64,000 nucleotides of DNA from Vezdaea acicularis (GCA_026025075.1 JAPEUI010000068.1:1-64000); one strand, 5' to 3'; numbered from the stretch's first letter, positions 2,965 to 42,780 are shown. The notes: generated by a model from the sequence alone, not told the origin. Translations and numbers: made by a program.

Positions 2965-5781
2965 GGAGCTTGACAGTAGTAGATCGTTATACCCCATGGG
3001 AAACTAAAAGGACCCTTTTAACAATTGCGATGAAGTCGGCCGAGCGCAAACATGAGAAGGAAGAGAGAATTAGAGCACCCCCAGTAATGGCCTTGTAGGG
3101 CAAGGTGAATGGCTTCAGAAAGATATGGAAGGGTATGCAATGGCCATACAGCAGCTCTACACGTGGAGAGCGGGGACGGTCGTGCCAAGAAATTTCTTTC
3201 AAAATCTTAAGAAGTTGAAGCAAGAGATATCAGAGGATCGAAAGCGCTGATGAGAAAAAGAGGAATTGACAAGGCTGAAGATCTCTTTTCTGCAAGGGGC
3301 ATCCCCCACCATGACCCCGAACGACCCAAAGCCGACGAGGCAATCGTCGACAAGGCCAAATTTGGCATTGCAAGCTTATGGAGTCAGTTGTAAAAATGGG
3401 GCGTACGGTATGCGGCGTGCAGATGTCCGGTGGTGCATGGCGTGTTGCGCACAGACTAATTGGTCCAGTCCTGGAGCGCTTGAGAGGGCCCCCCCTGCAG
3501 CTAGAACCCGCCATCTTGCACTCCGGGCGCTCGACCCTTGACGTGTGCGACCTTTCGCAGCCGCTAAGGCCAGAGGACTCTGCACAAGGCTGACATGATC
3601 GCTCTATTTGGGCCTTTGCCGCATGCTAATTGGCACTGGAAATCGAGTTGCGAGCAGCGAGTCCACAGAATGGATCCTTTGAGCTAATCATCTGCCTTCG
3701 TCGGTGAATCGTCGACGCATCGGCGCGGCAAACGCCGGAAGGCGCGGAACTTTCCCTGGGAAAGGTGGGTCGCACGGATCACGCTCGGGTCACGCGCTGC
3801 GATAGGCTGCCGCAGCAAGCTCACATGTGGGGAGCCTCACTCGATGACCCGATCGGGCATGGCCAATGTCAGCACCCTAAACATGAAACAAAGTCCTTGC
3901 TGTAGCAGATGTCGGTGTCGCTCGTAAGTCCAATCGTCCAAAGCAGTTGGTGCAACGTAGTTGAATGCCACACAGTATGATTTCCCTTCACCAGATGACT
4001 TGATCACGTGGAGTCCACCAGGATCCTTGCTCCTCTGTACATACCACCAAGTCATCGATGGAAGCGCAATCAACATCGAAGCAAACACGCTGATCTTGAG
4101 AGCACCTAGTATGAAATCCCGAGGGTAGCAGAATCGTTATCGGTTCGTTTTGCGAGTGCCCACCACCAACAGGAACGCGGCAACCTCTTCCACCGAATAT
4201 CTGGTTGAAACGGGACGACACGCTACAGTGATAGGGGGCTTTTCTACCGAGAATACCACGTCATGTAGTGAAACAGCAGACCTGACCCTCAGAATTGGGC
4301 ACCGTGATTGGAGATATGTACGTTGCAGGTCAAGCCCGAGAGATGGTGTGACAAAAATAGATCTTGCATAACCGAATCGTGACCTGTGCCGCAGCCGAAA
4401 CAAGCCATTGAGGAACGTTCAAGGGCTGTTCAGGAACATGCCCTCGATAATCATGACTTTTGCTTCGATTGCGAGCATAATGCATCTCACCTCTCTCACG
4501 GCATGATTTCTCTTGACGCGGAAAGTGGCGACTCATCCACAAACGGGAGACTGGAAGCAGAGTTGGACGGTACTCTGATTTGTTTGTCTCTGCAGACTGA
4601 GTTGCGGCCAAAGGCTCAATGATGTGAATGACGACTCGGAAGAGACATCGCCGCTGAAGATGTGGCATTACAGCGCATCATGCTGCAGTCGATTACGTCG
4701 ATTGAAGAAACTGGTTCTAGAAAACCGCAGCGGTCGGAAAGAGGAATGGTGTCAGATGGAGGTTACGGAGAAGATCGCAGGCTAGGGATTAGCGAGGCGG
4801 CACGGGCCCCAGAGAAACGACGCTCTGGGAGATGCATGTCAGACGCTTAAAATACGCTCGGGGGCCGGTCAATTTAGCCGAAGGGCTTCAACCCGGGTGA
4901 TCCGCTGCAGTATCCCCCACATACTCCTGTAATAGAAGCACTAAGGATACAAGTGGCCATTGTTTCTCTGCTCTGCCTACTCCGATTGAAATAGAAACCC
5001 CAAAGCAAACAGTACTCTGGCGAACTCTGTTTTGCTATCCGTACCGCACGCTTCGCAGTAGAAGAGTTCGTTACCCCTCCCATCGGGCGAAATGTAAGCG
5101 ACAGCGACCAGGCCAGCCCTAGGGCTGAGATCAAGCCACAATCGCGAGCGGTCAAAGAAAACGCGTATAAGACAAACATCTCGGCTATGAGCCGTCACCG
5201 TCGACCTCTGATATGCTGCAACCGATGAGCTGCCATCGGGGATAGATCCCTACCTATCCTATGACGTTGGGGCATCCGCAGAACGCGTACGCAAATATTG
5301 GCTGGCCGCAGAATTGGTACAGTCAGCTGAGACCGAGGGGGCATGAATCCTTTGATATTTCCCGTGAGGCCTTTGATATTCCGCATGAAAGTAGCTGATG
5401 TACGCTCATATATCGCTGGAGGCGCTCGGTGTGTTCGAACGGTGCGCCTCACAACCCTGGGCATAAACCTTCGATACGTCAGCTGTGGCTTGCTCGACGC
5501 AAATTACTTAGCTGAACGCTCACAATATGGGCAGATGAACTGTCGGAGCTGAAGTTTCCTTCGAACTGGTGGGGATCTCTTCTCCTAGAAGCTGTGAGAT
5601 GAAGAGAAGAATGCATTACGGTCGTGAAGCTGTACGCTCTCCGTAAAATCGCCTCTCTTATTAAAGCTGTATGCTGCCCGCCGTTTCTTCAATTCAAACC
5701 CTCTATTTCTTCACTATCACTCTATCTCCAACTTCCTAGGACAAGATCTTTACAAATACAAGCATTCTTAGGACTTTCATC

Positions 5782-6846
5782 ATGCGACTCCAGTTTCGTT
5801 TGGCTGTGGTAGTGGCTGTCCTTGTCGTAGGATGTGCTGCTACCGAACCCGATAAGATGATCGTGTTAGCCAGTGACAAATCCGACGAAATGGTCATCCT
5901 AGCGAATTGTGTCAATGTGAACAACGTCGGTGAACAGTCTTCGCAAATAGCCTATTACTCGAGCACACACAACCCGTCACCAGCCGCCATTGCCAAGGTC
6001 CAAACTCCGTTTGGTAAAACAGCTTTCTGGGAAGGCGGATCACCTATCAGTGCTACCTTTGCTGATGGTAACGTCTTCTCTGCCGATATCCCCAAAGACA
6101 TCAGCATCCAAGGGGCATTCGTTGGCCTAGGCAAGAACAATGCGGGCACCTTCTCATGCTGGAGAGACTGGCGGCCAGATACCTATACGGCCGACGGCGT
6201 TCGATGCTCGGGCATCTACACGTGCGACCACCGTGCGCCTCCAGGGAACGAAATAGAAGTACAGATTGAAATAGGCCAGAACTCAGTCGTTCTCGAGGGT
6301 GACGTGGACGCGTGGCAGGTATTCCACACGGTCTGGGATCGCCGCCAGGCCAGGAGCTGTGACACCAAACCCGTCGCTATTCCAGACACCTCCTGCACCA
6401 TCACATACGAATGCTTCGGTGCCACCGATTGGGAGATCACCAACGCCATGGCTACAACAGTCAACGGCGTCCTCGCCAAGGCCGTCAAGAAAGTAGAGGA
6501 CTACACCGTTCGCGAGTGCCAGGAAGTGTCCGACATACCGCCCCACAAATGCATCGAGTTGATCCCAGTCAAGCACCAGCGCACGAACATCGTCAATCAT
6601 GGCCGCTTGGACGTGACCAATGTCTCTCCTGCTGGCTCTGGAATCCCCAACTCGCTAGCTGGCTGGTTGACATACGATATCTCGTGCCCTACGGCGCATG
6701 GGAACTGTGCAGGATGCAAGGCGGCGGAGCTCTTCCTCATGGGCGGTGCGGCCGCAGGCACGTATACAATGAACCCGGAAGTTGCTGGAGCTTTTGGAGG
6801 TCTGAACGTCCTCACCACTGCGATCTGTGCTCTTGGAGGGTGTTAA
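5782..6846 (+). CDS. secreted cysteine-rich protein, 354 aa, unknown function (effector/toxin candidate)
   Basis: Intronless ORF; N-terminal signal-peptide pattern MRLQFRLAVVVAVLVVGCAA; many Cys; hydrophobic Gly/Ala-rich C-terminus. Confidence 0.8.
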   Translation: MRLQFRLAVVVAVLVVGCAATEPDKMIVLASDKSDEMVILANCVNVNNVGEQSSQIAYYSSTHNPSPAAIAKVQTPFGKTAFWEGGSPISATFADGNVFSADIPKDISIQGAFVGLGKNNAGTFSCWRDWRPDTYTADGVRCSGIYTCDHRAPPGNEIEVQIEIGQNSVVLEGDVDAWQVFHTVWDRRQARSCDTKPVAIPDTSCTITYECFGATDWEITNAMATTVNGVLAKAVKKVEDYTVRECQEVSDIPPHKCIELIPVKHQRTNIVNHGRLDVTNVSPAGSGIPNSLAGWLTYDISCPTAHGNCAGCKAAELFLMGGAAAGTYTMNPEVAGAFGGLNVLTTAICALGGC

Positions 6847-7215: not shown

Positions 7216-8739
7216 TTAGTAGGTGCAATGCCCACAATACCCACAATGATCTGCTGAACAAGCGGTGAAGTCCGGTTCGGATTCACTGTCAGAAAACGAC
7301 GGACCGCGAACACGCTCTATGTATGGCTCATCTTCCTCCTCCTCTGGCCAATCAGTGGATCTGGTCTCAGATGCATCTTCTCCTTGAGTCCATTGGGACT
7401 TGACCTTAGGTGGGAGAGCGTCACGACCGTCTCCTGCCTGCTTTCGAATTTCTAGCACATCCAAGTCATTTCGATATATCTCTAGCTTCGCATTGCTGGA
7501 TGCCTTCGCGTAATTGATGATCATTCTGACGAGAGAGGCGAGACGCCTAAGAGCATCTTGATTTTCCGATTCCCAACGAAGCAAATCGGCGCGTATATCT
7601 TGCCTACGAATATCTTTGAATTCTCCACGAGTATGATAAGCGACGATGAAGTTTGGAATCTGAGAGACCCAAAGACGCGGATACATCTCGGTCATATCGA
7701 TTTCCGTCCGGGCGGAACGGGTCTTGAGATCGAAAATAGCTTTCTGGGGAATTTGTCGGTGGCCTGGCTCGATTTGAATAGCGCTATCTGCGCTTGACGT
7801 CCCCTGGCTCAAACCGCTTAGTTTAGTGCCCTCCAACACTGACGTTAGGTCGGTTTCATCTTTAGTCTTTTGCACTAAGGAATCGGATTGGTCGGATTCG
7901 ACTTTCGAGACCATATCTGTAAAGTAGCCGTCGCTTTCGAAGCGTATGATGCATCTCAAGCCGCCAAAGTCATAAGTAATCATGCGCTGGCTGTTTTCCG
8001 AGCTTTTCACATCTCGCTCCCACGTAGTATAAGACTCGGGAAAAGTGTGCCCATATCCGTACACCCCCGGTATGAGCTCCGTGGGACTCCTCTCCTTCCG
8101 TATGAAGAATACAGTATTCCCAGCGACCTCAACATCAAATCTGAAAGGTTTATCGACAGCGCGGACAAACCTGAGCAGATTTCCGACGGTACTCCCGCAA
8201 GCGAACAGGTCTACTGTTGTAGTCGGAAGGGCTGGGTTTTCCGCCAGAACCGTACGAACGGCTGGCTCTATCGGATATGTGGGGTACTTCGCCGCGTTTG
8301 GATCTCGGAAGTAATTTCCACGGTCTTGTTCGAGTTGCCGAGGTTCTTGCAATGGCGTCCAAGCCGGAGGTACCCCTTTATTTGAGTTAGTCTCAGGGCT
8401 TGTCGCGTATCACGGGTTACGATGCTTACCAGGCACTAGAATGGTCGGAGCTTTCGTGTTGAGCCAGTTGTAGGAAGCAAGGTACTTGCAATTGGTGATT
8501 TTAGGCGACTGCTCTCCGGGTTCCGAGAATACCGTTAGGTCGGCGTTCTTGATCGAAGCTAATAGTGAACCTAAAGGCTGCGCAGGATACTCAGGCTCTG
8601 ATTTGTCGTCTTGCCTTAGCGGCTGCGCTCGGCGACCGCCCGATGATATACCTGACGAGGCTGAAAATCTGGAACGTTGGGAACCTCTCCAATGGCCTCC
8701 GCTTCGCCCGGTGCTGTTGTAGCGATTTCCGAAAGACAT
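7216..8739 (-). CDS. putative PD-(D/E)xK nuclease, DXO/Rai1-like (a family I recall being auto-annotated as 'geranylgeranyl pyrophosphate synthetase')
   Basis: 2 exons (8739-8430, 8375-7216; GTAAGC donor, CTAAC branch); motifs SYNW..PTILVPG.PP.W, GYGHTFPE, RFESDGY, IFDLKTRS, LWVSQ; C-terminal CSADHCGYCGHC. An upstream in-frame ATG at 8757 is possible. Confidence 0.75.
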
Positions 8740-9069
8740 CTCGAGATAGATGAACACCAGATGTTTCTTGACGGGTCAAGGCCTTTGGTGAAGCTTGAGG
8801 GAGACGATGCGGAGTACGCAAACAGAAGGCTTTCTCATTTACAAACAGACGGCATTGTCTCCACCCTGTCCCACTTGCATTGCATTTCTGCCTGTATGAC
8901 GTGGCAGAACCTCGCCAATCATGCCATTGGCCTCGATAAGAAGCTTGGGTGGTGATGGTTGCATTCCATCCCCCATAACCTGAACCAATTCTCTTCTCTT
9001 GGAGACTGTTCTCACACTCCTATTGCTCAATTAGAAAGAGTCTCAGCATTGCCTTTCTTCCATTCTCAA

Positions 9070-12000
9070 ATGTCATCAAATCCTACCGATCAATCGTCAG
9101 TTCGATCTGCTAGGTTACGGAGTTATTTCAATCAGATACTTCAGGGAAAGCGGTCGGTGAAAAGCTTGAACGATGCAAAGCGGTTCTTGGAAGCCATATG
9201 TGACCAAGAAGATCCATCTGGTTGCATCGAAAGACTCATCGCAAGTGCTGAAGGCTTGCACGCTGTGCACAAAAGTTTGAGAGTTGATGTTTCGCCATCA
9301 TTCCTAAACGGTTCTGGCACGGATTTCATAAAATACTTGACCAATGACGCTATAAAGCAATTATGCAGCGGCAGATTTCTTCAGGATATTATTACCATCA
9401 TCGTGGAACCTCCGACGGTTTGGCACGCTTTCCATAAAGCACATAAAGACAGAACTCTAAATCAACCTGGCTTGAATGCATTTGCATGGCTCCTACTACA
9501 ATTACTTCAGTCTACTAATCATGTTCCACCAGATGTTCGGGAAATTGCATGTGGTGTGACAGCGGACAGGTCTCTTCTCGACTCTCCATCTTTCAATACA
9601 CGCACAATAGGTCAAAAGATCAAGCATGTGCTGGATACGCTATCGAGGGACTTGCATCCCGAAAACGACTATAGACCAGGTGGCCGTCATGACAATGATT
9701 TCGCCGATTTTCGACAAATCTCCATCTTACCTACTACTGATGAGTTCCTGTCAAGCGAAAGGCCATTCTATCGTCGGGCTGATGCCGTCGATGAAGCAGA
9801 TATCGAATGTCGCGGTGCAATCCATTTAGATAATCAGTTTCGACTCCTTCGAGAGGATCTCCTGGGAGAACTGCGTAATGACCTGCAGATTGCCCGTGGC
9901 CACAAGAAAGGAAAACGAACAGGCCTAATAATTCGTGGCTTATGCTTGGAAGGAATCGATTGTGGTACAGATCAGAGACCGAAGAAGTCTAGTCTAATGT
10001 TACGCTGTACGGCCGGAATTCCACAGCTGTCAAGACTTCACCCATCGGAGAGGAAATCTTTTATCAGCATGAATCGAAACTTTATGAAACATCAATCTTT
10101 CGGATGTATTATGGATGGGGACGAACTAGTGGCTTTTGCAACTGTAGAAAGAAATGAAGAGCTTCTTGCAGAAAGCGACCCAGTTCTTGTTTTGCAGATC
10201 TCCGGCAAAGCTCCATTCACTAAAACGCTCCTTGCTCTGAAGGAATCGGAGGTCCTCCAGTTTGTTCAGGTTGATACAGCGGTATTTGCATACGAACCTG
10301 TACTGAAATGTCTACAAGAGAAGAGGGAATTACCGCTGGAAGACGAACTCTTCTACTCGCGGACGTCGCAAGAACGGCAGGATTCTACCCTCGACCTAAC
10401 CAAAATTACCCAGAGGATTGAGGATGCGGGAACTCAAGATCTCAGCTCATATCTGAGAACGCCCAAGCCTGTTGAGTTAGATAGTTCACAAGTCAAGTCC
10501 CTAGTTGCTGGATTAACACAAAAACTCAGTCTCATTCAAGGACCTCCAGGTGAGTTAGCAAACTCCGGAGAGTATATCCATCATCAAACTCACTATTCAA
10601 GGAACGGGCAAGTCATTCATTGGAGCATTGATTGCAAAAATTCTCCACGACCACACCGCAGAAAAAATACTCATAATATGCTATACTAATCACGCATTGG
10701 ATCAGTTTCTTGAAGACATTCTTGATATCGGAATTCCTGAGGAGGCGATGGTGCGCCTGGGAGCAAAATCCACCCCAAGAACCGAACATTTGAGTATTAC
10801 AAAGCAACGCAGTACTTTCACGCGTAGTGCTACCTCTTGGGACGTTATCAACAATTTGAAATTTCAGTCAGAAGATCTTAAGGAGGATATAGCTCGTTCG
10901 GTCTCTGGTTATCAGCACTTGAGCATCGGCAAAAATCAAATCCTAGAATATCTGGAATTCTCAGAGGACGAATCAGATTTCTATTACGCTCTGAGTACTC
11001 CCACGGAGCAAGATGGGATGACAAGGGTCGGTCGAAAGGGCAGAGCCGTTGGACCTTCCTATCTACTCGACCGCTGGGAATCAGGTCGAGACGCAGGGAT
11101 ATTCCAGAATAGGGTCATGAAAGAGCATGAACGCATTTGGGAAATGGACTCCTCTTTAAGAAAGGCCTGCGTGAAGAGGTGGACTTCCGAGCTACTTAAA
11201 GAACATGTGGATGAAATACACAACCTAGTGCAGAAGTTTGATGGTCGTCAAGCTTATCTCAATTACCTCTTCGGCGAGAAAAGCGCAGACATAATCAAAA
11301 CAAAGCGCATTATCGGATGTACAACCACGGCAGCTGCAAAATACGCGCGAGAACTTCAGAGTGCTTCTCCGGGTGTTATAATTGTTGAGGAGGCAGGCGA
11401 GATTCTCGAGAGTCACATTCTCACTGCAATGACTCCACAAACTAAGCAACTCGTGCTGATTGGAGATCACAAGCAGCTTCGGGCCAAAGTTAATAACTAT
11501 AAGTTGACGGTTGAAAAGGGTGATGGCTACAATCTTAATGTGTCTCTTTTCGAGCGGCTAGTTCTGGCAGGAGTTCCCCACACGACCCTTTACAAACAGC
11601 ACCGCATGTGTCCCGAGATATCTACGCTTGTCAAGAATCTTACATATCCTGATCTCTTAGACGCTCCCAAGACCCTAAATAGAGCCGTACTTCGTGGGTT
11701 TCAGGACAGAGTCATATTCTTTGATCATGACCATTTAGAGGTTGATATATCAGAGATTGCTGATCGACGGGATGAAGGATCCAAATCAAGCAAGCAGAAT
11801 CGGTTCGAAGTCGAAATGGTTCTGAGATGTATTCGTTATCTTGGACAACAAGGTTATCGTACGGATGAACTCGTCGTTCTCACTCCCTACTTAGCACAAT
11901 TGCGACTCTTGCGCGACGTCCTCAGCAAGGAAAATGATCCCATTCTAAATGATCTTGACTCTTACGATTTAGTGCGAGCTGGACTACTTCCAGCCGCAAG

Positions 12001-15000
12001 CGCAAATATTCAGAAGCGTCCCATCAGGATCTCCACAATAGGTATGCCTTTGAAACCCTTGATCATACCCTTCCATAACCCCTCTGAGTACCTCTGCCGT
12101 TGATTTGTCAAATACACTGCACATTATTGATACATAACGGACAATAATTTTTGTTATATCCAGACAACTATCAAGGAGAAGAGAGCGATATTGTCATTAG
12201 CACTCTGACTCGCAGCAACAAGTCAGGCGAAATTGGATTTATGTCAGCTCCGCAAAGAGTCAACGTTCTGTTATCCAGAGCCCGTAATGCGCTAATAATG
12301 ATTGGCAACGCCAACACTTTCATGGGTAGTCGCAAAGGCAAAGAGGTTTGGCTTCCTCTTCTTGACCTTCTCAAGCGTAACGGGCACATCTACGATGGAT
12401 TTCCCGTCAAATGCGAACGGCATCCCAACAAGAAGGCCCTTCTCCAGAAACCAGAAGACTTTGAAATTGAGTGCCCTGATGGGGGATGTGCCGAGCATTG
12501 GTAAGTAAAAATTACTTTTTTGCGTAGCAATTGACTGATACGTGCTCCAAAGTGAGACAAAGCTGAACTGTGGAATTCATGACTGCCCACAGCGGTGCCA
12601 CCAACTTTATGACCACTCGCAGATATTATGCCAAAAGGTGATTGAGTCTAGTTGCCAGAAGAATCACAAGATGACGTGGAGGTGTCACAAGGGCCGCCCT
12701 ATTGCTTGTCATACATGCGATCGTGAGACTCGTATACTGGAAGAAAAACGCCAGAGAGACCATGAGCTTGACATTGAGCGTGAAGCCAAACAGCGAGCTT
12801 ACAAGAAACAACTGGATGAAATTCAGATCGAAATAGCCTATCAAAGGCGCTTGCAGAGAGAGCAGTCGGATCAAATGGAGAGAGACCGGGTGCTTGAACT
12901 ATACAAAAAAGATCTTGCAAACATTGTAGCGGGGGTCAATCGTACAAATATCCAGCCACCTGAAAATCAGTCTGCCTCTCGTCAGCCCGAGAAACCCCTC
13001 CCTAAACCTATTTTAGGAGAAACTCATGATCAGCCTGCTAATCCTGTGCCCGTACCACATAGGAACAACGAAGCATCTCAACTTATCCCTCTCGTCTCGC
13101 CTGCTAAAGGTGAATGGGAGCACCAAAAAGATTTTGAGGGTGCACGTAATGATGCTCTAGACTCTTTGATGGGCATGATTGGCCTTGAAAATGTTAAAGA
13201 GCAATTCTTGGACATAAAAGTCAAGATTGATACTATGATCCGCCAAGGCACGGATCTGAAGGGTGAACGCTTCGGCGCTGCATTTTTAGGAAACCCAGGA
13301 ACAGGTAACGTCTTATCATTTTGAACCTAAAAATAAATTGACTGACAGTCTGAAGGCAAAACGACCGTGGCCCGTCTCTACGCAAAGTTTTTAGCATCTA
13401 TCGGAGCTTTGCCCGGTAGTCATTTCGTGGAGACTTCTGGATCGCGTATTTCAAATGATGGTGTTGCTGGATGCAAGAAACACATTGAGGATATTCTCAA
13501 CAACGGCGGAGGTGCATTGTTTATCGACGAAGCCTACCAGCTGGTCTCAGGCCATAGTTACGGGGGACCGCAGGTTCTTGATTTTCTTCTCGCGGAGATA
13601 GAAAACCTAACAGGAAAGATGGTAATTATTTTGGCTGGCTACAATAAGCAAATGGAAGCTTTTTTCTCCCATAATCCCGGAATTCCTAGCCGTATCCCCT
13701 ACCAACTTCAGTTTCAGGATTATGGAGATGCTGAGCTTTTACAAATTTTGCGCTCTCGGATTAATGAGAAATATAAAGGCTCCATGAAGTTGGATGGTGG
13801 CGAAGATGGCCTATATGTTCGTGTCGTTGCACGCCGGATTGGCCGTGGCCGTGGTCGTGACGGGTTTGGCAATGCTCGAGCCGTCCACAATGCATTCGCT
13901 TGCATTGCTGATCGTCAAGCAAAACGTCTGCAGCGGCAGCGGCGAGCTGGAGAGACTCCTGATGATATGCTGCTGACAAAAGAAGACCTTCTTGGGCCCG
14001 AACCTTCAGATGCTCTTAAGGATAGTAAAGCGTGGTCTAAACTACAGAAGCTTATCGGTCTTAAGTCAGTTAAGGAGTCTGTAAAGGCCCTGTTGGATAG
14101 CATTCAAGTCAACTATAACCGAGAGCTTGAAGAAAAACCACTTGTCGAATATTCTCTCAACCGTGTGTTTCTCGGTTCCCCAGGAACTGGAAAAACCTCG
14201 GTCGCCAAATTGTACGGACAGATACTTGCCGATATTGGTCTTCTTACAAGTGGTGAAGGTAGGACATCTCTTAATAATAGTCGAGAATATAGCTGATAAG
14301 TAAACAGTCGTCACAAAGAACCCGGCCGACTTTGTCGGTAACGTAATAGGCCAGTCGGAAAGTAACACAAAAGCGATACTGGCGGCGACAATTGGGAAGG
14401 TCTTAATTATAGATGAGGCATATATGCTTTCAGGTAGCACAGGAGGGGCAACATCAAATGCCGATTCCTATAAAACTGCTGTCATTGACACAATTGTTGC
14501 AGAGGTTCAGAGTACCCCTGGCGAGGATCGATGTGTGCTTCTCCTTGGCTACAAAGATGAGATGGAGAAGATGTTCCAGAATGTCAACCCGGGACTTTCT
14601 CGACGGTTCCCTATTGACTCTGGTTTCCTTTTTGAAGACTTTACGGACGACCAACTACAAAGTGTTCTTGCCCTAAAACTTGATCAACAAGGGTTTGAGT
14701 GTACGGATCAAGCAAAGGTTGTTGCTCGAGATATGCTGAGTCGGGCTCGCAACCGACCGCATTTTGGAAATGCCGGTGAAGTTGATATTCTATTGGACAA
14801 AGCGAAATTACGCCACCAGAAGCGGGTCTCTTCTGGAAAGTCAAAAAGCGCTGATACTCTAGAAGCCCCGGATTTTGATGAAGATTTTGATCGGGGAGAG
14901 CGAGCTTCTACAAATATTCACAAGCTTTTCGAAGGTGTAATAGGCTGTGATTCAATTATTACACAGCTAGAAGGCTACCAAAACACTGCTGCAAGGTCGA

Positions 15001-16425
15001 AAAAGATTGGCATGGATCCTCGAGAGCTGATTCCTTTCAATTTCTTGTTCCGTGGTCCTCCAGGTACGCAGCCGCGAATTTATCAAATCCTCAATTGCAA
15101 TTTTAGAATTAACGACTTACACAGGCACCGGAAAAACAACGACTGCAAGAAGAATGGGAAAAGTTTATTATGACATGGGCTTTCTAGCCACGGCGGAAGT
15201 AGTTGAATGTTCAGCGACAGATCTAGTTGGACAATATGTCGGGCAAACGGGACCCAAAACACAGAACATTCTCGAAAAGGCTTTAGGCAAAGTCTTGTTC
15301 ATAGATGAAGCTTACCGCCTCGCCGAAGGCCACTTTGCAACAGAGGCCATGGACGAAATTGTTGACTGTCTCACAAAGCCAAAGTTTGCTCAGAAACTCG
15401 TCACAATCCTCGCAGGCTATGATGCAGACATCAATCGGTTAATGTCAATTAATCCGGGACTTACAAGTCGGTTTCCAGAAACTATAATTTTCAAGCATTT
15501 AAGCCCAGAAGATTGCCTAAGCTTGTTTATCAAACTCCTCAAGCAAAAGAAGCATTTGGATACTGCAATTCTAAAACAACCATCGGCTGATCTTCGGAAA
15601 AGGCTAATTATGTATTTCGAAGAGCTCGTTAGGCTCCCGTCTTGGGGAAATGCTCGTGACATTGAGTCGCTAGTCAAGCATATTTTTAGGACCATTCTAT
15701 CGTCAGCTAAAGGGCCGGTAGAAGATCTACGACTTGATGGTGATGTAATCTTTAAGTCATTTCAATCCATGATCTCTGAGAGAGCTCATCGTGGTAACAA
15801 TATTTCCGGAGGTCGCCCGTTTTTGACTACTGATAGCCCTCAGAATATACGCAAATCTGAATCAACAAAGCCTCCTGAAACACATACGACTGTGCTTTCT
15901 TCTCTCGAAACATCTCGGAACGACCCTCATCCCCAACAGCGCCCAGAATCAGAGCGCGTGCCGGAAGAAGTACCGCGAGATAGTGGGATAAGTGATGCAG
16001 TGTGGCAAGAGCTGCAATTAGACAAATGTGCAGCTAAAGATCGTGAGCGGAAGTCCGAGCTGGACTACAAGCAAGTCCTCGAACAACAAAAAGAATTAGC
16101 AGAATTATCTATGAAAGATGCACAGGCCGAAAAAAAGGTACAATTAGCTATCGAAAATGCTGTAAATGACGAAGCAAAACGGCGGCATGAAGAGGAACGT
16201 CTGCGGCTATTGACGGAGCGAAGAGCCTATGAGAAAGAACTCGAGGAACTAGAAAGGCGAAGGAAGGCTGCTGAGGAAAAGAAGCGCAAGGAGGCGCAAG
16301 TTCAAACCAAGCTGAGGCAAATGGGTGTTTGCCCTGTGGGTTACCGGTGGATTAAGCAACACTCAGGCTACAGATGTGCAGGAGGTAGCCATTTCGTCTC
16401 AAAGACGCAATTGGGTATTGATTGA
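9070..16425 (+). CDS. ZNFX1/UPF1-like SF1 helicase + NFX1-like Zn finger + coiled coil + three CbbX/SpoVK-type AAA+ domains, ~2322 aa, 7 exons
   Basis: Exons 9070-10549, 10602-12041, 12164-12500, 12553-13304, 13356-14258, 14308-15063, 15125-16425 (6969 nt, in frame). Helicase motifs GRHDNDFADFR, GPPGTGKS, VEEAGE, LIGDHKQLR, SLFERL, QHRM, TPY..Q, DNYQGEE, NVLLSRAR; three GxPGTGKT + IDEAY + NPG..R modules. Confidence 0.92.
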
Positions 16426-17220: not shown

Positions 17221-17663
17221 TTCACTCTGCTATATCTTGATCTTAATCAGCTTTTCCATGCTACGACTCCTGTACCTAGACTCTTGCAACAGATACTAGA
17301 GTCCTTGAAAGTACGCTCACATATATACAGGGACTAGAACGCCTGGCGAAGCATTTCCCTGTCCTCACAGCCTCGCCCTCCATCAAGGAGCCTATGCATC
17401 TGTGGGCTGATGCTTGATTCGGTCGCTAACACTGTTCTCCACCCAATCAGCTTCATACATCACTCTTGAATAATAGCTCGACTTGTGTTACCACTGCCCA
17501 CTTACAGCCTTGTTGCTCGTTAGAAAACCTAGCAAATCACAACCGTGACTCCCAAGGGCCCTTTTGTCGGCCTTAGACAGTTGATCACTACAGCAGTGAT
17601 GATGAACAGCCTTACCATCACGCTTCAAGAGTTGTCGTCCGCCGCGGAATACAGCTTAACACC

Positions 17664-19133
17664 ATGGGCGATCAAGTCACTACTGTTGCCAGTCTCCCTG
17701 CTGGCTATGCAACGCTCGCCGGAATTGTGTATGCCGCCATAGCAACAGAGCAAAAGAACTGGAGCTGTATCGTCTGGAACCGGATTACGCCAGCCTTCTA
17801 TTGTCAGCAATATCAAAACGGGTGGACCGAGCAGGGAGACCAAAAACTAGAGGGCAATTTGGATCAAAAACAACAACAACTAATCGACGCTCTGATACGC
17901 TGTATCACCAAGCACGCAAGAAGTTTATCCTCCAGCAAAAAGGATAAATCGATGGCAAATAATGAGCCACAACTAGTAGACTGGACGGCTGCACTATATC
18001 TTTTGTACAGCGCGCTTGTTCCGGTACCTGAACCCAACATAGAATCGTCAGATAACCTTGATTCCCAGGCCGATATACATTTAAGGACTTCAGGTGACTT
18101 ATCCTCAGTAACAGGTCTAGAACATGACTCAAACGGAGATGAGACGCTACAGCCATTGCCTGTAAGTCTCGATGTAACACAAATGACTATCCAGGTCAAC
18201 ATGGTCAAGGAGAGCATAGAAAAAAGACAACACGAGGTTATATGCAACAAGGCGTGGCTGCAAAAAACACTTCAAGATGATGAGATCCGCCATATTCATG
18301 ATCCTTCTATCACCATCTCCGAACTCGACAAAATAATTTCTAAAGTCGAAGAATGGTTAGAAAATCCCTCTACCACGCTCCGACGCTCTGAAAACCCCAT
18401 CTTCGTCCAACTCGCTGGACCCTTCGAAGTGTTCATTATTGAGGTTGCTTTCAAAGCGGCCGAGATTCTTTTCGCATGCGCCATTGTCCTTGGTTCGACG
18501 GGTGGCGCCTGGCTTGGGCTGACCATGGCGTCTATATTTCCTACACGCCGTGCCGCAGGAGTGTTTACTAGTGCTTACGGACAAGTGGAACCCCACAACA
18601 GTACAGAGCAGGTATCTTTCCATGCAGCCGGCATGATGTGGGGATTTTGCTATTGTGTCCATCCACATGGCTGGATGGACGAGAGCAGAGTCGCTGTAGG
18701 GTACATCTTGCAATACGGATGCCTGGTCGCAGTGCAGCACTTCAAAGTTCCTCTTCGTTCACTGCTGGAATTCAATACATACTCTTACACCCGGGACGCG
18801 ATCCGGTACATTGTTCTTGTGTTAGAATTAATCTTCATTGTGTCCATGACACATTTGCTGTACCGCCAGCTGCACAAAAAAACCTCGCCGAAGATACGAT
18901 TGATACCGGTAGTTTTGTATGCAGTGTTCCTTGGGGGGTGTATAACGTGTTTGATTCTAGCACAGCATGACTTCATGAAGCCACTTCCAAAATTCTACCG
19001 TCTCTCGAAGTTGGTGGATCCAATCGCGGCAGCTGGATCATTCATCGCTGCTATGATTACCGTGGAAAGAGTTGTTTCTGCTGAAATATGGATCATGATT
19101 TGGGCGGTAGGGGTGTGTAGTGCTGTGTTTTGA
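17664..19133 (+). CDS. orphan multi-pass membrane protein, 489 aa
   Basis: Long intronless ORF; several hydrophobic segments in the C-terminal half (ILFACAIVLG, YIVLVLELIFIV, LIPVVLYAVFLGGCITCLIL, IWIMIWAVGVC). Confidence 0.7.
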   Translation: MGDQVTTVASLPAGYATLAGIVYAAIATEQKNWSCIVWNRITPAFYCQQYQNGWTEQGDQKLEGNLDQKQQQLIDALIRCITKHARSLSSSKKDKSMANNEPQLVDWTAALYLLYSALVPVPEPNIESSDNLDSQADIHLRTSGDLSSVTGLEHDSNGDETLQPLPVSLDVTQMTIQVNMVKESIEKRQHEVICNKAWLQKTLQDDEIRHIHDPSITISELDKIISKVEEWLENPSTTLRRSENPIFVQLAGPFEVFIIEVAFKAAEILFACAIVLGSTGGAWLGLTMASIFPTRRAAGVFTSAYGQVEPHNSTEQVSFHAAGMMWGFCYCVHPHGWMDESRVAVGYILQYGCLVAVQHFKVPLRSLLEFNTYSYTRDAIRYIVLVLELIFIVSMTHLLYRQLHKKTSPKIRLIPVVLYAVFLGGCITCLILAQHDFMKPLPKFYRLSKLVDPIAAAGSFIAAMITVERVVSAEIWIMIWAVGVCSAVF

Positions 19134-21405: not shown

Positions 21406-24400
21406 ATGACAACCTTGTCAGTAAACCATTCATTCCGTAGCGTCTACGATCCTTCTTCTTCCAAAGTCAATATGCTACATACCAAAGCTGACAACATCCC
21501 TAGCCAGGCAGGTAACTTATGGCCAAAGGCCGTTGCTGCACTATCCGAGGAAGAACGACGTATTCTCCATACGAACGAACCGCCACCCCAGGTCCTTGAA
21601 AATTTACGACACACAGTCGAAGAGGAGAAACAGCTTTGCCTTGAAAAGCGCTGGAAGTATAGAAAAGATGGTCAAGACATTATCTTACGGGATAAACTCG
21701 AAAAGATCATGACGTGGGTGAGCAAGTTTGTCGCCGTTGGCGATGTTGCAATTCAGTACGACCCATTTCATGCGGCCTTGCCTTGGGCAGCTGTTCGCTT
21801 CTTACTTCAGGCCAGTCCAATTGCTCCTGCTACAAAAAAGCGGATCTCTGACTAAGCTTGATCAGGCTACAGTCAATGACTCGCAAATATTCGGTTCCAT
21901 GGTCGATGGTCTTGAAACCGTGTCAAATTCTATTGCGCGTTGTTATGCCCTCGAAGGGCTGTATATTCAACAGAGCGCTACCACAACAGTGCAACGCCAA
22001 CTAGAGCAATCTATTTCAGGGCTGTACTCCGCCATTTTAACTTATCTTTTTGAATCCAAGAGGTACTACGCTCAAAATACTGCTGGTTTGTCCATCGAGC
22101 CAATCATATATGGGAAAGGCTGATTGACCTGGTAAATTAGTACGTACGGCGAAGAGTGTGTTTACCGTCAAAGAGTTAAAGGTGGATGGATTTCTTCAGA
22201 AGATATCAGCAAAGCAGGCCGATGTTGATGCTTGCACACGCCTCATTGATAGAAAAGATGTCCAAGCAACAGGGGATAGTCTAAAAAAACTGCAAGCAAT
22301 TCTGTTGGATTTGGCCGCTCCCATCAATCGATCGGCAAGCCACCTGTCAGAGCTTCATGATCATTTGAAGGAGTCGGAACGAAAGGAGATTTTGGATTGG
22401 ATGTCGACGGTACTGCATCAATCCCACCATCGCGCTATGGGAGAAGGGTTTCTACCTAACTCTGGAAAATGGCTTCGGGAAAAGGCTGAGTTTTTAGAAT
22501 GGGAAAAATCTAGTACCTCATCCATACTGTGGCTACATGGAATTCGTATGTTCACCACCACCCATCGCCCATCTTCATTAACGGTATTACTGATATAGCA
22601 GTAGCTGGCTCAGGAAAAAGTCGACTGATGTATGTTTAGATTATTTTATCTTGAGCGCGAAACTTAATCTCTCAACAGATACTCAGTCATCAAATCCCTT
22701 CAACCTGAGATCCGGCAAATCCAGAACTTCGCACCAGTGTTGTTTTTCTACTGTGCGCGCAGCGAATCGGAACCACAACGTGCAGACCCAGAAGAAATCT
22801 TACGGAACATTCTAAGTCAGCTATCCATCTCAGGATCAGACTCTATAAAACAAATTGTAATAAAAGCACACAAGGAAAAAAGGGATGAAGCTAGAAAACA
22901 TGGCTCAAGAAAACTTGACCCTTTGACAATTAACGAATGTGTTGAGATTATACTCAAACTAGTGGAGCTAGATCCAGTGACTATCGTTGTTGATGCACTT
23001 GACGAATGCAATCATAACACAAGATTCAAGCTACTCAATGCCCTCCGCGAGATAATTGACAGGTCCCCTAGCCTAGTCAAGGTGCTTATCTCTAGTAGGG
23101 ATGATACAGACATTGTTAATTGTCTCAAAGACTTTCCAAATGTCCTTATCAATGCCAAAGACAACGGAGCCGATATTAAACGTTTCATTGAGGAAGAGGT
23201 TGCCAGCTCTATTAGCAATAGGCGATTGCTCTACGGCACTGTTTCAGAAGATCTCAAGAACGAGATTATCATGACGTTACAAAAGGGTGCACAGGGCATG
23301 TAAGTGCATTAGTACTGGTATAAATTCTTGCTATTGGAACTGACTCGTATCTTAGGTTTCTCTGGGTCAGTTTCCAGCTACAAAATCTTTCTGACTTTGA
23401 AAGATTGCAGCATGAAGACGACGTTCGAGATGAATTAGGAAAGCTTCCAAAGGATTTAGCAGATCTCTATAGTGTTGTATACTCCAAAATACAACGGTCA
23501 GCTCAAACGAGTCGCTCAATTGCCGACCGAGCAATGAAATGGTTACTTTGTGCTCAACGTCCACTTGAAAGTGAAGAGCTTATTGCAGCTGTTTCTGTAG
23601 GAGCTAATGGAAAATTCTCAAAACTTTCTAAAGTTGGCCTCCTGACCATGTGCAGAAATCTTGTTGTTCTAGACACAGAGCTCAACACATTTGGATTTGC
23701 TCATCTGTCAGTCAGAGAGTTCCTAGAGCGCCAAGTGGACTTCTCTTCACTTAGCACCAACGGCCTTGTTTTGGAGAGGTGTCTTGATACATTACTCTCT
23801 AACTCGACAAAACCAGAGCCAGGACACGATTTAATACTCGAACAGAACCGGGTGCTCCAATCATACGCAATGTTGTTCTGGCCGACGCATTGTAAAATTC
23901 TCGAGAATGAGAAAATTGAACCTTGCGTAGAAAAGAAAATTAGAGATTTCTTACTCCAGAATGGTCATACAAGTCAATCATTCCAAGCATGGGTCTCAGA
24001 TATCAATGGAGCGATTAAAAAGGGTCCGTACTCAGCTATATACAATCGTCTTGGGGACGTAGTTAGCTCACCACCAACACCCCTGTTTTTGGGCTGTACA
24101 TTCGGACTTCTCTCTGTGATAGAATGGCTCAGTACAGCCCACAGCATTAGCGTAAATGCTACAAACCAGCGTGGACATACTGGATTGTGTATTGCTAGTT
24201 CATGGGGACACAAGGATATTGTCGAGCTGCTGCTTGCAAAAGGGGCAGATCTGGAGGGAGGGAAGAATAGCGCTAATGGGACTGCGCTGGTCCAGGCGGC
24301 GGGCGGCGGGCACAAGGATATCGTCGAGCTGCTGCTTGCAAAAGGGGCAGATCTGGAGGGAGGCGAGAATAGTCACTTTGGGACGGCGCTGCGCCGGGCG

Positions 24401-26668
24401 GCGGACGGCGGGCACAAGGATATCGTTGAGCTGCTGCTTGCAAAAGGGGCAGATCTGGAGGGAGGGGAGGATTGGTTCTTGGGGACGGCGCTGGGCCAGG
24501 CGGCGGGCAAAGGGAATAAGGATATCGTCGAGCTGCTGCTTGCAAAGGGGACAGATCTGGAGGGAGGCGAGAATAGTCACTTTGGGACGGCGCTAGGCCA
24601 GGCGGCACGCGGCGGGCACAAGGATATTGTCGAGCTGCTGCTTGCACAAGGGGCAGACCTGGAGGGAGGGAAGAATAGCTCTCTTGGGACGGCGCTGGGC
24701 CAGGTGGCGGGCAAAGGGAATAAGGATATCGTCGAGCTGCTGCTTGCAAAGGGGGCAGACGTGGAGGGAGGGAAGAATGGCTACAGCGGGACTGCGCTGA
24801 GTGAGGCGGCGGGCGGCGGGTACACAGATATCGTCGAGCTGCTGCTTGCAAAGGGAGCAGACCTGGAGGGAGGGAAGAATAGCTTCGTTGGGACGGCGCT
24901 GGGCAAAGCGGTACGCGGCGGGCACAAGGATATCGTCGAGCTGCTGCTTGCAAAAGGGGCAGATCTGGAGGGAGGGGAGAATAGCCACTTTGGGATGGCG
25001 CTGGGCCAGGCGGCGGGCAGCGGGCACACAGATATTGTCGAGCTGCTGCTTGCAAAGGGCCCAGATCTGGAGGGAGGGGAGAATAGCAACTTTGGAACTG
25101 CGCTGGGCCGGGCAGCGGGTAGAGGGCACACAGATATCGTCGAGCTGCTGCTTGCAAAAGGGGCAGATCTGGAGGGAGGAAAGAATGGCTACAGCGGGAC
25201 TGCGCTGGGCCAGGCAGCGGGCGGCGGGTACACAGATATCGTCGAGCTGCTGCTTGCAAAAGGGGCAGATCTGGAGGGAGGGAAGAGTAATTACGGTGGA
25301 ACTGCGCTGGGCCAGGCGGCGGGCAAAGGGCACACAGATATCGTCGAGCTGCTGCTTGCAAAAGGGGCAGATCTGGAGGAAGGGAAGAATAGTCGCTACG
25401 GGACAGCGCTGGGCCAGGCGGTGGGCAGCAGGCACACAGATATCGTCGAGCTGCTGCTTGCAAAGGGGGCAGATCTGGAAGGAGGGAAGAATAGCGACTT
25501 TGGGACTGCGCTGCGCCAGGCGGCGAGCAGAGGGTACACAGATATTGTCGAGCTGCTGCTTGCAAAGGGGGCAAATCTGGAGGGAGGGAGGGATAGCTCT
25601 TATGTGACGGCGCTAGGCCAGGCGGCGCGCGGCGGGCACAAGGATATCGTCGAGCTGCTGCTTGCAAAGGGGGCAGATCTGGAGGGAGGGAGGGATAGCT
25701 CTTATGGGACGGCGCTAGGCCAGGCGGCGCGCGGCGGGCACAAAGATATCGTTGAGCTGCTGCTTGCAAAGGGGGCAGATCTGGAGGGAGGGAAGAATAG
25801 CGACTTTGGGACGGCGCTAGGCCAGGCGGCGGGCGGCGGGCACAAGGATATTGTCGAGCTGCTGCTTGCAAAAGGGGCAGATCTGGAAGGAGGGGAGAAT
25901 AGTCACTTTGGGACGGCGCTGGGCCAGGCGGCGCGCGGCAGACGCAAGGCTATCGTCGAGCTGCTGCTTGCAAAAGGGGCAGACCTGGAGGGAGGGAAGA
26001 ACAGCTCTAAAGGGACTGCGCTGGGTCGGGCGGCGGGCAAAGGGTATAAAGATATCGTCGAGCTGCTGCTTGCAAAGGGGGCAGATCTAGAGGGAGGGAA
26101 GAATAGTTCTAAGGGGACTGCGCTGGGCCAGGCTGCGGGCAGCAGGCACACAGATATCGTCGAGCTGCTGCTTGCGAAAGGGGCAGACCTGGAGGGGGGA
26201 CACAATAGCTACGCTGGGACAGCGCTGGGCCGGGCGGCATATTGCGGGCATCAGGATGTTGTCGAGCTGCTACTGAAAAAAGGGGCAAATGTTGAAGGAG
26301 GGAATCATGGCTGGGGCGGGACAGCACTGGCCTTTGCAGCAGGCAGGGGCCACAAGAATGTCGTCGAGCTGTTGCTAGCAAACGAGGCAGACATCGAGGG
26401 AGAGAATAATGGCACAAACAGAACGGCACTGTGCTGGGCAGCAAGTGGGGGGCACAGAGAGGTCGTCGAGCTGCTGCTGGCAAACGGGGCAGACCTAAAG
26501 AGAAAGGAGGATACAATGGGGAGGACAGTGCTAGACAAAGCTGCAGGCGGTGGGCATGTGGCGATCGTCGAGCTACTGGTGGCAAAAATGGCAGACATCA
26601 AGAGAGATAGAAGAGGCATAATGGCATTGGACTTGGCGGTACTGGACGGACACAAAGCGATCTCCTAG
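21406..26668 (+). CDS. fungal NLR-like protein: helical N-terminal domain + NACHT + ankyrin repeats, ~1662 aa, 6 exons
   Basis: Exons 21406-21810, 21866-22085, 22141-22545, 22605-22629, 22679-23299, 23356-26668 (4989 nt, in frame); N-terminal DP.HAALPWAAVRFLLQ; Walker A WLHGIPGSGKS; Walker B IVVDALDEC; GMFLWV; FAHLSVREFL; 24 ANK units. Confidence 0.93.
24215..26662 (+). repeat. coding tandem repeat, 24 x 102 bp ankyrin units (first ~20 near-identical)
   Basis: GATATYGTCGAGCTGCTGCTTGCAAARGGGGCAGATCTGGAGGGAGG recurs every 102 bp (24215, 24317, ...). Confidence 0.97.
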
Positions 26669-31173: not shown

Positions 31174-32061
31174 AGCGAAACGCGGACTACGTCGGAGCAC
31201 GAGCTGGCGATGAGAAGCTAGATACATTACCTTAAGATATAGAATATATTTCGATCGGTAAATAGGGAAGGTCGCATATGTATCAGCTGACAGAGACTTT
31301 CTTGTGGATAAGCAGGCGGGTGGTAATTCTGGCGCATAAGTCCACGCAGCCCTACAGAAGCACCTTTCCAAGTTGCTCCACCTGTTGAATTACAATGCAC
31401 TGTCCGTATGTTGGTTGGGCAACGGGGCCATACCTCCGAGCTATATGGAATGTACGCCAAGTCTGGCGATCGATAAGTTGGAATGTGGTATGGAACGTTC
31501 ACCACTGCACTGTGCTCTATTTGGATTAGGCTCTCGGGTGGCGTGGAAATTCCGCGGTCCCAGCTACCGAATCCTGGCCGCAGGGCCTGCTGATCGCTTG
31601 GCGCATGTTCAACCTCCCCAAAAAAATACCCCACCAAACACCAGCCACGTGCATTTACAGGACGTCCCCTTCTTGTATAAGCCAACGAGATGACTATTCA
31701 TGAAACCATGGTTATCGATCTTGGTCTTATCCTTTGGAACGACATTTCTCACCCTCCTCGAGGACCTACAATCGTCTTCAGCAGATGCCATTTAACATTG
31801 TTAGTGAAGAGGACGTTCGAGACAACCCCTCCATGAAGATCTTCACTGCGACACGGCCCGGATAATCAAGTGCGACCTTGAAGGCCAAGTTTCGCAGCTG
31901 TCGCTTCTCGAGCGCGTCACCATAGAGGGCCGAAATTCTAACCGGCCTCCTGTAGCTGCAGATTTTGAAAGGAAGAAGGAGCAGCAGCGGATTTGGATGG
32001 AAAAGCAAGAGCGACCCATCGATTCTGCTTCTTGACACCACTTTGAAGATACAAGCTCGCC

Positions 32062-41826: not shown

Positions 41827-42780
41827 TCATCTGCCTTCATATCCAGCGACCGCGTTCTTCAGCAACTGATCAAGTTTGTATCTTTCGGAGCCAGGCTGAG
41901 TAACCTCTGCCGCCTTCTGAGTTGATTTTGGCGGTCTTCGAAAGAATTCCGTATCTCTGCTCGGAGCAAACATCGCAGGCCTAGCAATTTGCTCCTCAAT
42001 GTTTAATTGCTGAGATCTACTAGGGTTACCGGCTTTGTATTCATGACCAACCTTCGCTCCTTGCAGCACACCATCTGCAGCTTGCTGATGCCCGAAGAGC
42101 TCTTGTAAATTGACCTGACGGCCTATTGGATCTTTTCGTCTATTGTTCCTTGAGTTCTCTGTACTATGCTCTACCTGTTTTTCTTTCTTTGCTCTCATGG
42201 CCTTCGTTGATGCTTCGGCCGCAGCGGCGCAGTCTTCTATGATCTTTGCGTTACGAGTACGAGTCTCGGCCGTAGATGAAGGGGGAGGCTCGCTGAATAT
42301 CCAAAGCCCATATATGGGTGCATTGCCAGGGTTGGAACTCGAACGTAGAATGACATATTGATCGGTAATTTCGACATCATTGGAGCTTGTCAAATCTGCG
42401 GTGAAATTGTCCAAGCCACGGCGATTCAGTATAATGACCTTGTACCTTTCAATACCTTCTTCTTTGGCGACCTCAGAAGGAGAGAGTTGACAGACAAACA
42501 TAGTCCCTTCAATATCATTCTTTTCCCATGTCTGTGATTCGGTCGAAAAGACATAGACCACTGCGTAATTGGCGATAGACAGGATTTGAGAGATAGTAGG
42601 CTCATACCTGCGGAGTACAGTAAGATTTATCTCACTGTTTGACCGCGTGGGAGGTGGAGCAGGGAGGTCTGATAGGTTTGCGAGATCGGATTCATAGTCA
42701 GACGGTTGCAACTGAGCTTGGGCTAGTGGCTCTTGATTTGGACGCTGTCGGCGCTGATATTGATAAGAATTCCTGACCAT
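41827..42780 (-). CDS. DCP1: mRNA decapping activator (EVH1 domain)
   Basis: NLTVLRRYEP.I..IL...YAVVY.F....WEK..IEGTMFV...IILNRRGLDNF...IYGLWIF. Confidence 0.88.
   Translation of the reverse strand: MVRNSYQYQRRQRPNQEPLAQAQLQPSDYESDLANLSDLPAPPPTRSNSEINLTVLRRYEPTISQILSIANYAVVYVFSTESQTWEKNDIEGTMFVCQLSPSEVAKEEGIERYKVIILNRRGLDNFTADLTSSNDVEITDQYVILRSSSNPGNAPIYGLWIFSEPPPSSTAETRTRNAKIIEDCAAAAEASTKAMRAKKEKQVEHSTENSRNNRRKDPIGRQVNLQELFGHQQAADGVLQGAKVGHEYKAGNPSRSQQLNIEEQIARPAMFAPSRDTEFFRRPPKSTQKAAEVTQPGSERYKLDQLLKNAVAGYEGR

Follow-up and report, generated by a model that had tools for sequence, protein, structure and literature searches.

Two divergently transcribed genes, here called gene A and gene B, were studied in a 64,000-nt stretch of DNA from Vezdaea acicularis (JAPEUI010000068.1:1-64000), which is referred to below as the window and from whose first letter all coordinates are counted. 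Gene A is predicted to code for a nuclease with the fold of the DXO/Rai1 enzymes, and gene B for a ZNFX1-type helicase that continues into an array of AAA+ modules. Their head-to-head arrangement recurs in related fungi far beyond chance. Judging from the sequences compared, the pair is an ancient, vertically inherited module in the lineages sampled. Both the sequences and the structural models make it moderately probable that the two genes form a co-inherited, probably co-expressed two-protein module of filamentous ascomycetes, which would act on RNA from its 5' end, either in survey or in degradation.

Conservation of the head-to-head pair

Metagenome contigs were scanned with an alignment of gene A, 80 of the 141 confirmed loci were kept, and these related loci were searched for gene B by tblastn with the gene B exons of the window. 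The N-terminus of the helicase was found head-to-head with gene A, on the opposite strand, in 45 of the 49 loci with at least 2500 bp of upstream sequence, in 50/55 with at least 1500 bp, and in 54/64 with at least 1000 bp. Where the length of the contig permits, the whole of gene B is present in order, and exon 2 of the nuclease gene lies 645-1432 bp away from the helicase start region. Since many of the 80 loci are near-copies of each other, the nuclease peptides were clustered at 80% or 95% identity. Clustering at 80% gave 48 lineages, comprising 35 paired, three unpaired despite at least 2500 bp upstream, and ten too short to tell, so that the pair is present in 35 of the 38 informative lineages; clustering at 95% gave 60 lineages (41 paired, three unpaired, and 16 too short).

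Named genomes give a comparable result. Fourteen assemblies, judged by the prefix of the locus tag, are common to the best-120 lists of both genes, and the two genes carry consecutive locus tags in 13 of them, AA313 being the exception. These 13 assemblies span Orbiliomycetes, Geoglossomycetes, Lecanoromycetes, and Dothideomycetes, and are Trichoglossum (GP486_002828/29), Sarea (M1819_004655/56), Teloschistes (Q9212_002191/90), Pyrenophora (CFE70_010353/52 and PTNB73_09973/74), Alternaria (ACET3X_007158/59), Neocucurbitaria (N0V83_007872/73), Plenodomus (NX059_009276/77), a member of Pleosporales (ACEQ8H_002346/45), Orbilia (TWF694_004980/81), Dactylellina (H072_1968/69), and Arthrobotrys (TWF481_002392/91 and TWF506_010362/63). 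Homologues of the helicase are also found in Eurotiomycetes and Leotiomycetes, and those of the nuclease in Sordariomycetes (Colletotrichum and Pseudoneurospora).

The sequences around the pair change from lineage to lineage. None of the 11 open reading frames (ORFs) that flank the pair in the window was found in any of the 80 related loci, i.e. there is no third conserved gene. Twenty-four lineage representatives for which 3 kb or more is available outside the pair were compared with each other; a flanking ORF was common to the two members (E up to 1e-10) in only 5 of 276 lineage pairs, while the gene pair is common to all. Trees of the two proteins were compared for 28 loci and the window, drawn from 33 representatives, with both peptides required to have at least 300 residues and the others dropped. 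The nuclease and helicase-core trees have 15 of 26 splits in common, whereas 500 shuffles of the labels gave 0.23 on average and never more than 2, and the patristic distances of the two trees are correlated with r = 0.805, a value reached in none of 2000 permutations. Relatedness alone gives such agreement and, therefore, the trees speak for co-inheritance and not for interaction. Since the arrangement recurs, the flanks change, and the gene trees agree, the pair is to be regarded as an inherited module and not as part of an accessory island. The adjacency of homologues and the congruence of the two trees, both of which had been proposed as tests in an earlier, sequence-only reading of the window, are thus borne out. 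A mobile history of the defence-island kind is not supported, given the congruent trees and the strong conservation in the lineages sampled.

Protein A, a predicted nuclease of the DXO/Rai1 superfamily

Protein A has no match in Pfam, even at E up to 10. Of 3924 candidate proteins, 886 are homologous to it at E up to 0.001. The 120 best of these are all fungal or metagenomic, none of these 120 carries a Pfam domain, and many of them bear the name 'geranylgeranyl pyrophosphate synthetase'. When the family profile was compared with 1.84 billion cluster representatives, 2929 matches were obtained at E up to 0.001, 1791 at 1e-10, and 866 at 1e-30.

The relationship to DXO/Rai1 appears at the level of the fold. 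The AlphaFold2 model of exon 2 has a mean predicted local distance difference test score (pLDDT) of 75 and a predicted template modelling score of 0.74, with residues 161-197 and 334-386 disordered (residues of protein A are numbered by the exon-2 translation). In a Foldseek search with this model, the top ~30 matches are all DXO/Rai1/Dxo1 (E from 2.4e-9 to ~5e-7), and the cap-binding domain of eIF3d comes next. Alignment by VIA-align gave Z scores of 18-21 for Rai1/DXO over 245-277 residues, with a root-mean-square deviation of 3.1-4.1, compared with Z 15 for Dxo1, 12-14 for eIF3d, and ~5 for RecE, MGME1, and lambda exonuclease. The viral structures of BFVD gave no match to the fold at E up to 0.001. 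By its modelled structure, protein A is a member of the DXO/Rai1 superfamily that stands outside the sequence models of the family, and it appears to belong, as a predicted nuclease, to an unnamed DXO-type clade for which Pfam has no model.

Conservation was assessed in 349 sequences of the family, 269 of them proteins from databases and 80 of them peptides derived from the loci, with 347-349 aligned per column. The putative active-site residues lie within 7723..7932 on the minus strand and comprise D149 (7932-7930), kept in 343/347 sequences, D216 (7731-7729), at which D or E is kept in 344/347, and K218 (7725-7723), kept in 346/347. Next to the last of these, T219 is kept in all 347, while E or D at position 114 is kept in 330/349, R93 in 345/348, R131 in 343/347, R145 in 344/347, and E147 in 292/347. 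In the model, D149 stands just after the strand 140-146 and D216-x-K218 lies within the strand 214-221, which is the usual layout of PD-(D/E)xK enzymes. E114, E147-x-D149, and D216-x-K218 may be the counterparts of DXO motifs II, III (E-h-D), and IV (E-h-K). Motif I of DXO is, according to the available text of PMC11571810, an invariant Arg with Gly and then a branched residue behind it. In protein A of the window, none of R93, R131, and R145 is followed by Gly, though each is kept in more than 98% of relatives.

Two further features lie at the ends of the chain. The N-terminus is rich in Arg, Gly, and Ser, and homologues show plain repeats of the Arg-Gly-Gly (RGG) type. A C-x4-C-x2-C-x2-C motif (7225..7260, minus strand), presumably a metal site, is located two residues before the C-terminus; among the relatives that reach this tail its four Cys are kept in 256/257, 256/256, 255/256, and 251/252, and the His between them is variable.

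Protein B, a ZNFX1-type helicase with AAA+ modules

The N-terminal region of protein B (9085..10269, plus strand) is predicted by AlphaFold2 and Foldseek to be ZNFX1-like, with an armadillo-like helical repeat (residues 6-191), a stalk helix, and a beta-barrel (287-400). The model of residues 1-494 has a pLDDT of 84, and Foldseek ranks the ZNFX1 helicase core 9q9z first (E 5e-6, 23% identity over 307 columns). It is followed by an Upf1-like helicase core of superfamily 1 (residues ~489-1030, 10534..12333, plus strand), recognized by Pfam AAA_11/AAA_12. A sequence search of PDB with the helicase exon gave ZNFX1 (9q9z_A) at E 7.4e-47, Aquarius at 1.7e-16, and UPF1 at 4e-12. In PADLOC, residues 469-1028 match MkoA of the Mokosh system (E 3.5e-70); protein A matched no defence model of PADLOC at E up to 0.001.

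Behind the core lies a region rich in Cys and His (residues ~1056-1142, 12409..12721, plus strand), presumably a short zinc-finger stalk of the NFX1 type. The Cys and His columns of this ~90-residue stretch are nearly invariant in the 28 full-length homologues by which the conservation of protein B was judged, and its Pfam zf-NF-X1 match (E 7) is not significant. A coiled coil and a linker lead from this stretch to three CbbX/CfxQ-type AAA+ modules with lids (13163..15756, plus strand; Pfam AAA and AAA_lid_6), namely AAA1 (13163-14026), AAA2 (14054-14885), and AAA3 (14973-15756). All three have a Walker A of the form G(N/S/P)PGTGKT and a Walker B of the form (F/I)IDEAY, and AAA1 matches CbbX (E 5e-25) and EccA1 (E 7e-24) in PDB. 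In the helicase as in each of the three modules, Walker A and Walker B are conserved to at least 90%, and the mean column identity is 55% over ~2300 aa across classes.

The C-terminus (15994..16422, plus strand) consists of a K/E-rich predicted coiled coil and a terminal motif of ~35 residues, MGVC..G(Y/F)RWIKQ..GYRCAGGSHFV (16318-16422, plus strand), which is conserved in the 28 homologues. This motif matched no Pfam family at E up to 10 and gave no usable Atlas match. With two Cys and one conserved His, it has too few ligands to form a zinc site by itself; protein A ends in four Cys. An E3 module of the Miz/RZ-finger kind is absent from the Pfam matches of the public protein P0121, and a search of the final 100 residues at E up to 10 gave none either. 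By sequence and model, protein B is therefore described as a ZNFX1-type helicase in which three CbbX-type AAA+ modules take the place of the E3 end of ZNFX1. For both proteins the family had been called correctly from the DNA alone, as a PD-(D/E)xK fold like that of DXO/Rai1 and as a ZNFX1-type helicase with three AAA+ modules, respectively.

Gene structures and the spacer between them

Gene A, as read from the sequence, is located on the minus strand and has its ATG at 8739-8737, two exons, one intron, and 489 codons. Exon 1 (8430..8739) codes for the disordered N-terminus rich in R, G, and S and then for a conserved SYNWLN...PTI.VPG segment. Exon 2, whose frame is open (7216..8375, including the stop at 7216-7218), codes for the DXO/Rai1-fold core, an acidic disordered linker, and the C-terminal Cys4 tail. 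The two are separated by an intron of 54 nt (8376..8429, minus strand) of the form GTAAGC...CTAAC...AG. Two minus-strand ORFs, 8410-8775 and 7216-8409, are one frame split by a single stop (8410-8412), which disappears because the intron is spliced out. The splice junction restores the consensus PTIxVPGKPPxWTPL of the homologues, and the exon-1 peptide has a tblastn match just upstream of exon 2 in related loci. Among public proteins of 212-676 aa no entry is identical to the product of gene A, the best being 64% identical. Gene A may therefore lack annotation in the public record of this organism, unlike gene B, the spliced translation of which is identical, letter for letter, to the public 2322-aa protein P0121.

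Gene B (9070..16425, plus strand) starts with the ATG at 9070, ends with the TGA at 16423-16425, and codes for 2322 aa. A search for GT..AG introns gave seven exons (9070-10549, 10602-12041, 12164-12500, 12553-13304, 13356-14258, 14308-15063, and 15125-16422) and six GT-AG introns of 49-122 nt, the first of which interrupts the helicase Walker A, GPPGTGKS. The spliced models agree in coordinates and orientation with the sequence-only reading, in which the genes were divergent with starts at 8739 and 9070, ~330 bp apart.

The spacer of 330 bp between the start codons (8740..9069) is presumed to be a shared bidirectional promoter. Among the 37 spacers compared, no k-mer was found to be common to all. 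AGCCAAT is present in 19/37 spacers and in at most 14 in shuffles, and several of the other top k-mers are in fact coding sequence of exon 1. CAAGGCTG is present in 17/37; eight of these have the longer CTCAGCCTTG, and a ninth has CAAGGCTG alone at the same offset and on the same strand. The eight loci with CTCAGCCTTG are L037, L007, L010, L036, L019, L012, L039, and L053 in our numbering, and L051 is the one with only CAAGGCTG. The longer element is positioned in the spacer or the 5' region of the nuclease gene, ~305-385 nt from the helicase start, and neither the window nor most of the other lineages have it. A regulatory or 5'-untranslated-region element peculiar to certain lineages is thus conceivable.

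Proposed function and alternative explanations

The action of the module on RNA 5' ends can be potentially described as follows. The 330-bp spacer would drive both genes, and the two products would be made together. Protein B would bind single-stranded RNA and move 5' to 3' like ZNFX1, for which the available text of a preprint (10.1101/2025.10.14.682297) reports 5'-3' RNA helicase activity and dimerization via the armadillo domain. The armadillo-like end of protein B may likewise pair two copies, and the six AAA+ modules could close a ring, which might remodel an RNA-protein target or the partner protein. The Arg/Gly-rich N-terminus would keep protein A close to the RNA, where it may hydrolyse non-canonical 5' ends (triphosphate, NAD-type, or incomplete caps) and/or digest 5' to 3', as DXO/Rai1 do, with the motor clearing structure and proteins ahead of the nuclease. 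Possible substrates are aberrant transcripts of the cell and the RNA of transposons or mycoviruses.

Several observations weigh against this proposal. Three lineages (loci L017, L014-L016, and L056) have gene A with unrelated neighbours and no helicase beside it and, therefore, adjacency to the helicase is not obligatory. Since each unpaired copy nests in a paired clade, with support of 98-99 in the Shimodaira-Hasegawa-like approximate likelihood ratio test, these are three independent secondary changes. A fusion of both families was not found in the best 150 of the 2929 profile hits (280-798 aa), which is weak evidence, and four long relatives of gene A (677-2000 aa) are without helicase domains. 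In protein A, none of 30 aligned family members matches Pfam RAI1 at E up to 10, and the family profile has no match among PDB sequences at E up to 10; the putative catalytic residues are therefore only tentatively equated with the motifs of DXO, by pattern and strand position. Finally, a shared promoter alone could keep the two genes adjacent. At L015, where the helicase neighbour was lost, a Sir2-family ORF lies downstream and a SNF2-related fragment upstream (ORFs 12394-13530 on the plus strand and 5147-5818 on the minus strand).

The alternative that survives best is an inducible immunity against viruses or transposons, in which protein B would sense foreign RNA, protein A would destroy it, and the pair would be switched on with the genes of RNA interference (RNAi). 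This is possible, though we consider it unlikely, and it is drawn by analogy. The helicase core resembles MkoA of a bacterial defence system, and animal ZNFX1 is an antiviral helicase as far as the available text on it goes. In flies (Cutoff) and worms, paralogues of the DXO family have taken on roles in small-RNA or surveillance pathways, according to the available parts of PMC11571810 and PMC13129544. In Cryphonectria, Table 2 of PMC6530638 places two genes, JGI 342243 ('geranylgeranyl pyrophosphate synthetase') and JGI 342244 ('aaa family'), among 73 co-regulated genes, together with DCL2, and flags JGI 342244 as affected by hypovirus infection. However, that these two genes belong to the families of genes A and B could not be confirmed. 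Moreover, the vertical inheritance of the pair, the strong identity of protein B across classes, and the housekeeping surroundings are unlike the fast-evolving, patchy loci typical of defence, and the NLR-like gene that lies near the pair here is not conserved beside it elsewhere. Two other named genes, an 'AAA family ATPase' of A. fumigatus with abundant antisense small RNAs and MGG_11779 ('ZNFX1') of M. oryzae, could not be linked to the gene B family.

A more elaborate version of immunity, again by analogy, would be a Pezizomycotina-wide innate machine against RNA, ~400 million years old as estimated from the classes involved. Its ZNFX1/Mokosh-type helicase would recognize foreign RNA that has no cap or an odd one, and with a second copy it would form a closed CbbX-type ring of six modules. 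This ring would grip the Cys4 tail of the hitherto unrecognized DXO-clade nuclease and thereby license it to destroy the RNA. Mycovirus infection would induce the pair along with Dicer, as hinted at by the Cryphonectria table. As a complete scheme, this is doubtful.

Adjacency without joint function, in which one compact bidirectional promoter cannot be split and the products serve unrelated pathways, is still less probable. The shortness of the spacer, both here and in the related loci, and the lack of fusion proteins among the relatives examined are in keeping with it. However, the adjacency outlasts nearly all other synteny, given how few lineage pairs have a flank in common, and it spans lineages whose nuclease is 39-53% identical to that of the window. 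In addition, both products fall in families of RNA 5' ends or RNA helicases, which an accidental constraint does not predict.

It is very unlikely that protein A is no nuclease but an adaptor or client that binds caps or 5' ends, like eIF3d or fly Cutoff, with its Cys4 tail gripped by the AAA+ ring: the fold is common to the non-catalytic cap-binding domain of eIF3d, E147 is replaced in 55/347 relatives, and a conserved motif at the extreme C-terminus, of a kind on which CbbX-type AAA+ proteins pull, follows a disordered acidic linker, but the match to active Rai1/DXO is much better than that to eIF3d, and D149, D/E216, K218, T219, R93, R131, and R145 are each more than 98% kept, as an active PD-(D/E)xK enzyme predicts.

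Surroundings in the window

An amino-acid permease gene lies upstream of the pair, and other genes of the window code for kinases, an ARMT1-like phosphatase, an acyltransferase, NAD kinase, a PAK-type kinase, DCP1, an inositol 5-phosphatase, RNA polymerase I A49, a Brix protein, and a class II tRNA synthetase. The accessory island that had been proposed around the pair is not supported, since the rest of the window consists mostly of housekeeping genes and the pair itself is widely conserved. An NLR-like gene with NPHP3_N/NACHT, a winged helix, and ankyrin repeats (22668-26665, plus strand) is indeed present ~5-10 kb downstream, as the sequence-only reading had said, but its nearness carries no meaning, because it stands beside the pair in 0/80 related loci. 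As a candidate part of the system, this gene at 22.7-26.7 kb was rejected for the same want of conservation next to the pair. Its ankyrin array (24209-26304) consists of 20.5 copies of a 102-bp (34-aa) unit with 84% matches, and has a guanine-cytosine (GC) peak of 0.60 and a strong GC skew.

The gene for the Dcp1-like decapping factor (41830-42792, minus strand; Pfam DCP1, E 2.6e-32) lies ~25 kb from the pair, and nothing indicates a link between them. Four long frames have no Pfam match at E up to 1e-4, namely 50640-53363 (minus strand, 908 aa), 17577-19130 (plus strand, 518 aa), 32047-33627 (plus strand, 527 aa), and 5740-6843 (plus strand, 368 aa). None of the 80 related loci has a counterpart of the two frames next to the pair.

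Comparison with known systems and significance

By analogy, the module may come closest in its working to an enzyme of 5' ends like Rai1 that is joined to a 5'-3' RNA machine, and in its layout to Mokosh type I. With DXO/Rai1/Dxo1, e.g. in yeast Rat1-Rai1, protein A has in common the predicted fold over ~270 residues and similar acidic and lysine residues on central strands. Rai1 is likewise coupled to a 5'-3' RNA machine, its partner being the exonuclease Rat1, whereas the coupling of protein A is genomic and its partner is a helicase-AAA+ protein. Protein A also differs from DXO/Rai1 in its RGG-type N-terminus, a disordered insert of ~40 residues, the Cys4 tail, and the lack of any match at the level of sequence. 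Eukaryotes usually have one gene of the DXO family, according to the available text of PMC11571810, and protein A would be an addition to this usual single member per genome.

Protein B, like animal ZNFX1 and S. pombe Hrr1, is predicted to have an armadillo-like N-terminus, a 1B barrel, an Upf1-like core, and a stretch rich in Cys and His. Human ZNFX1 consists of an armadillo domain, a helicase with 1B and 1C inserts, a stalk, and a C-terminal Miz and RZ-finger E3, as given in the available text of the preprint cited above (10.1101/2025.10.14.682297), and its stalk contains twelve zinc fingers in the part of PMC13710534 that describes it. In protein B the presumed counterpart of the stalk has ~90 residues, and where ZNFX1 has its Miz and RZ-finger E3 end there are three CbbX-type AAA+ modules, followed by a coiled coil and then a short C-terminal motif. 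CbbX, the activase of red-type Rubisco, and EccA1 are AAA+ proteins with an AAA_lid_6 lid, like the modules of protein B; unlike them, protein B fuses three modules in one chain behind a helicase.

Mokosh type I, with the helicase MkoA and the nuclease MkoB, has the same two-gene layout of a helicase plus a nuclease. The Mokosh nuclease is of the phospholipase-D type, whereas protein A has a predicted DXO fold and no match to a Mokosh nuclease. Mokosh is a bacterial operon without an AAA+ array, whereas the pair has such an array and consists of divergent eukaryotic genes. No description of the pair was found in the literature, but most subscription journals lay outside the search and a prior mention is possible.

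The gene A family appears to be an overlooked DXO-type clade of 2929 sequence clusters that is routinely mislabelled 'geranylgeranyl pyrophosphate synthetase', and its tie to the helicase is likely among the most durable gene linkages in fungi. The pair offers a concrete, testable candidate partner for a helicase family, that of ZNFX1, whose mode of action both in immunity and in the inheritance of small RNAs is still under study. As a natural domain swap, in which the ubiquitin-ligase end is exchanged for an AAA+ array, protein B may show to which outputs such a helicase can be coupled. If it is true that the two Cryphonectria genes are this pair, the module would be an antiviral arm beside RNAi in fungi.

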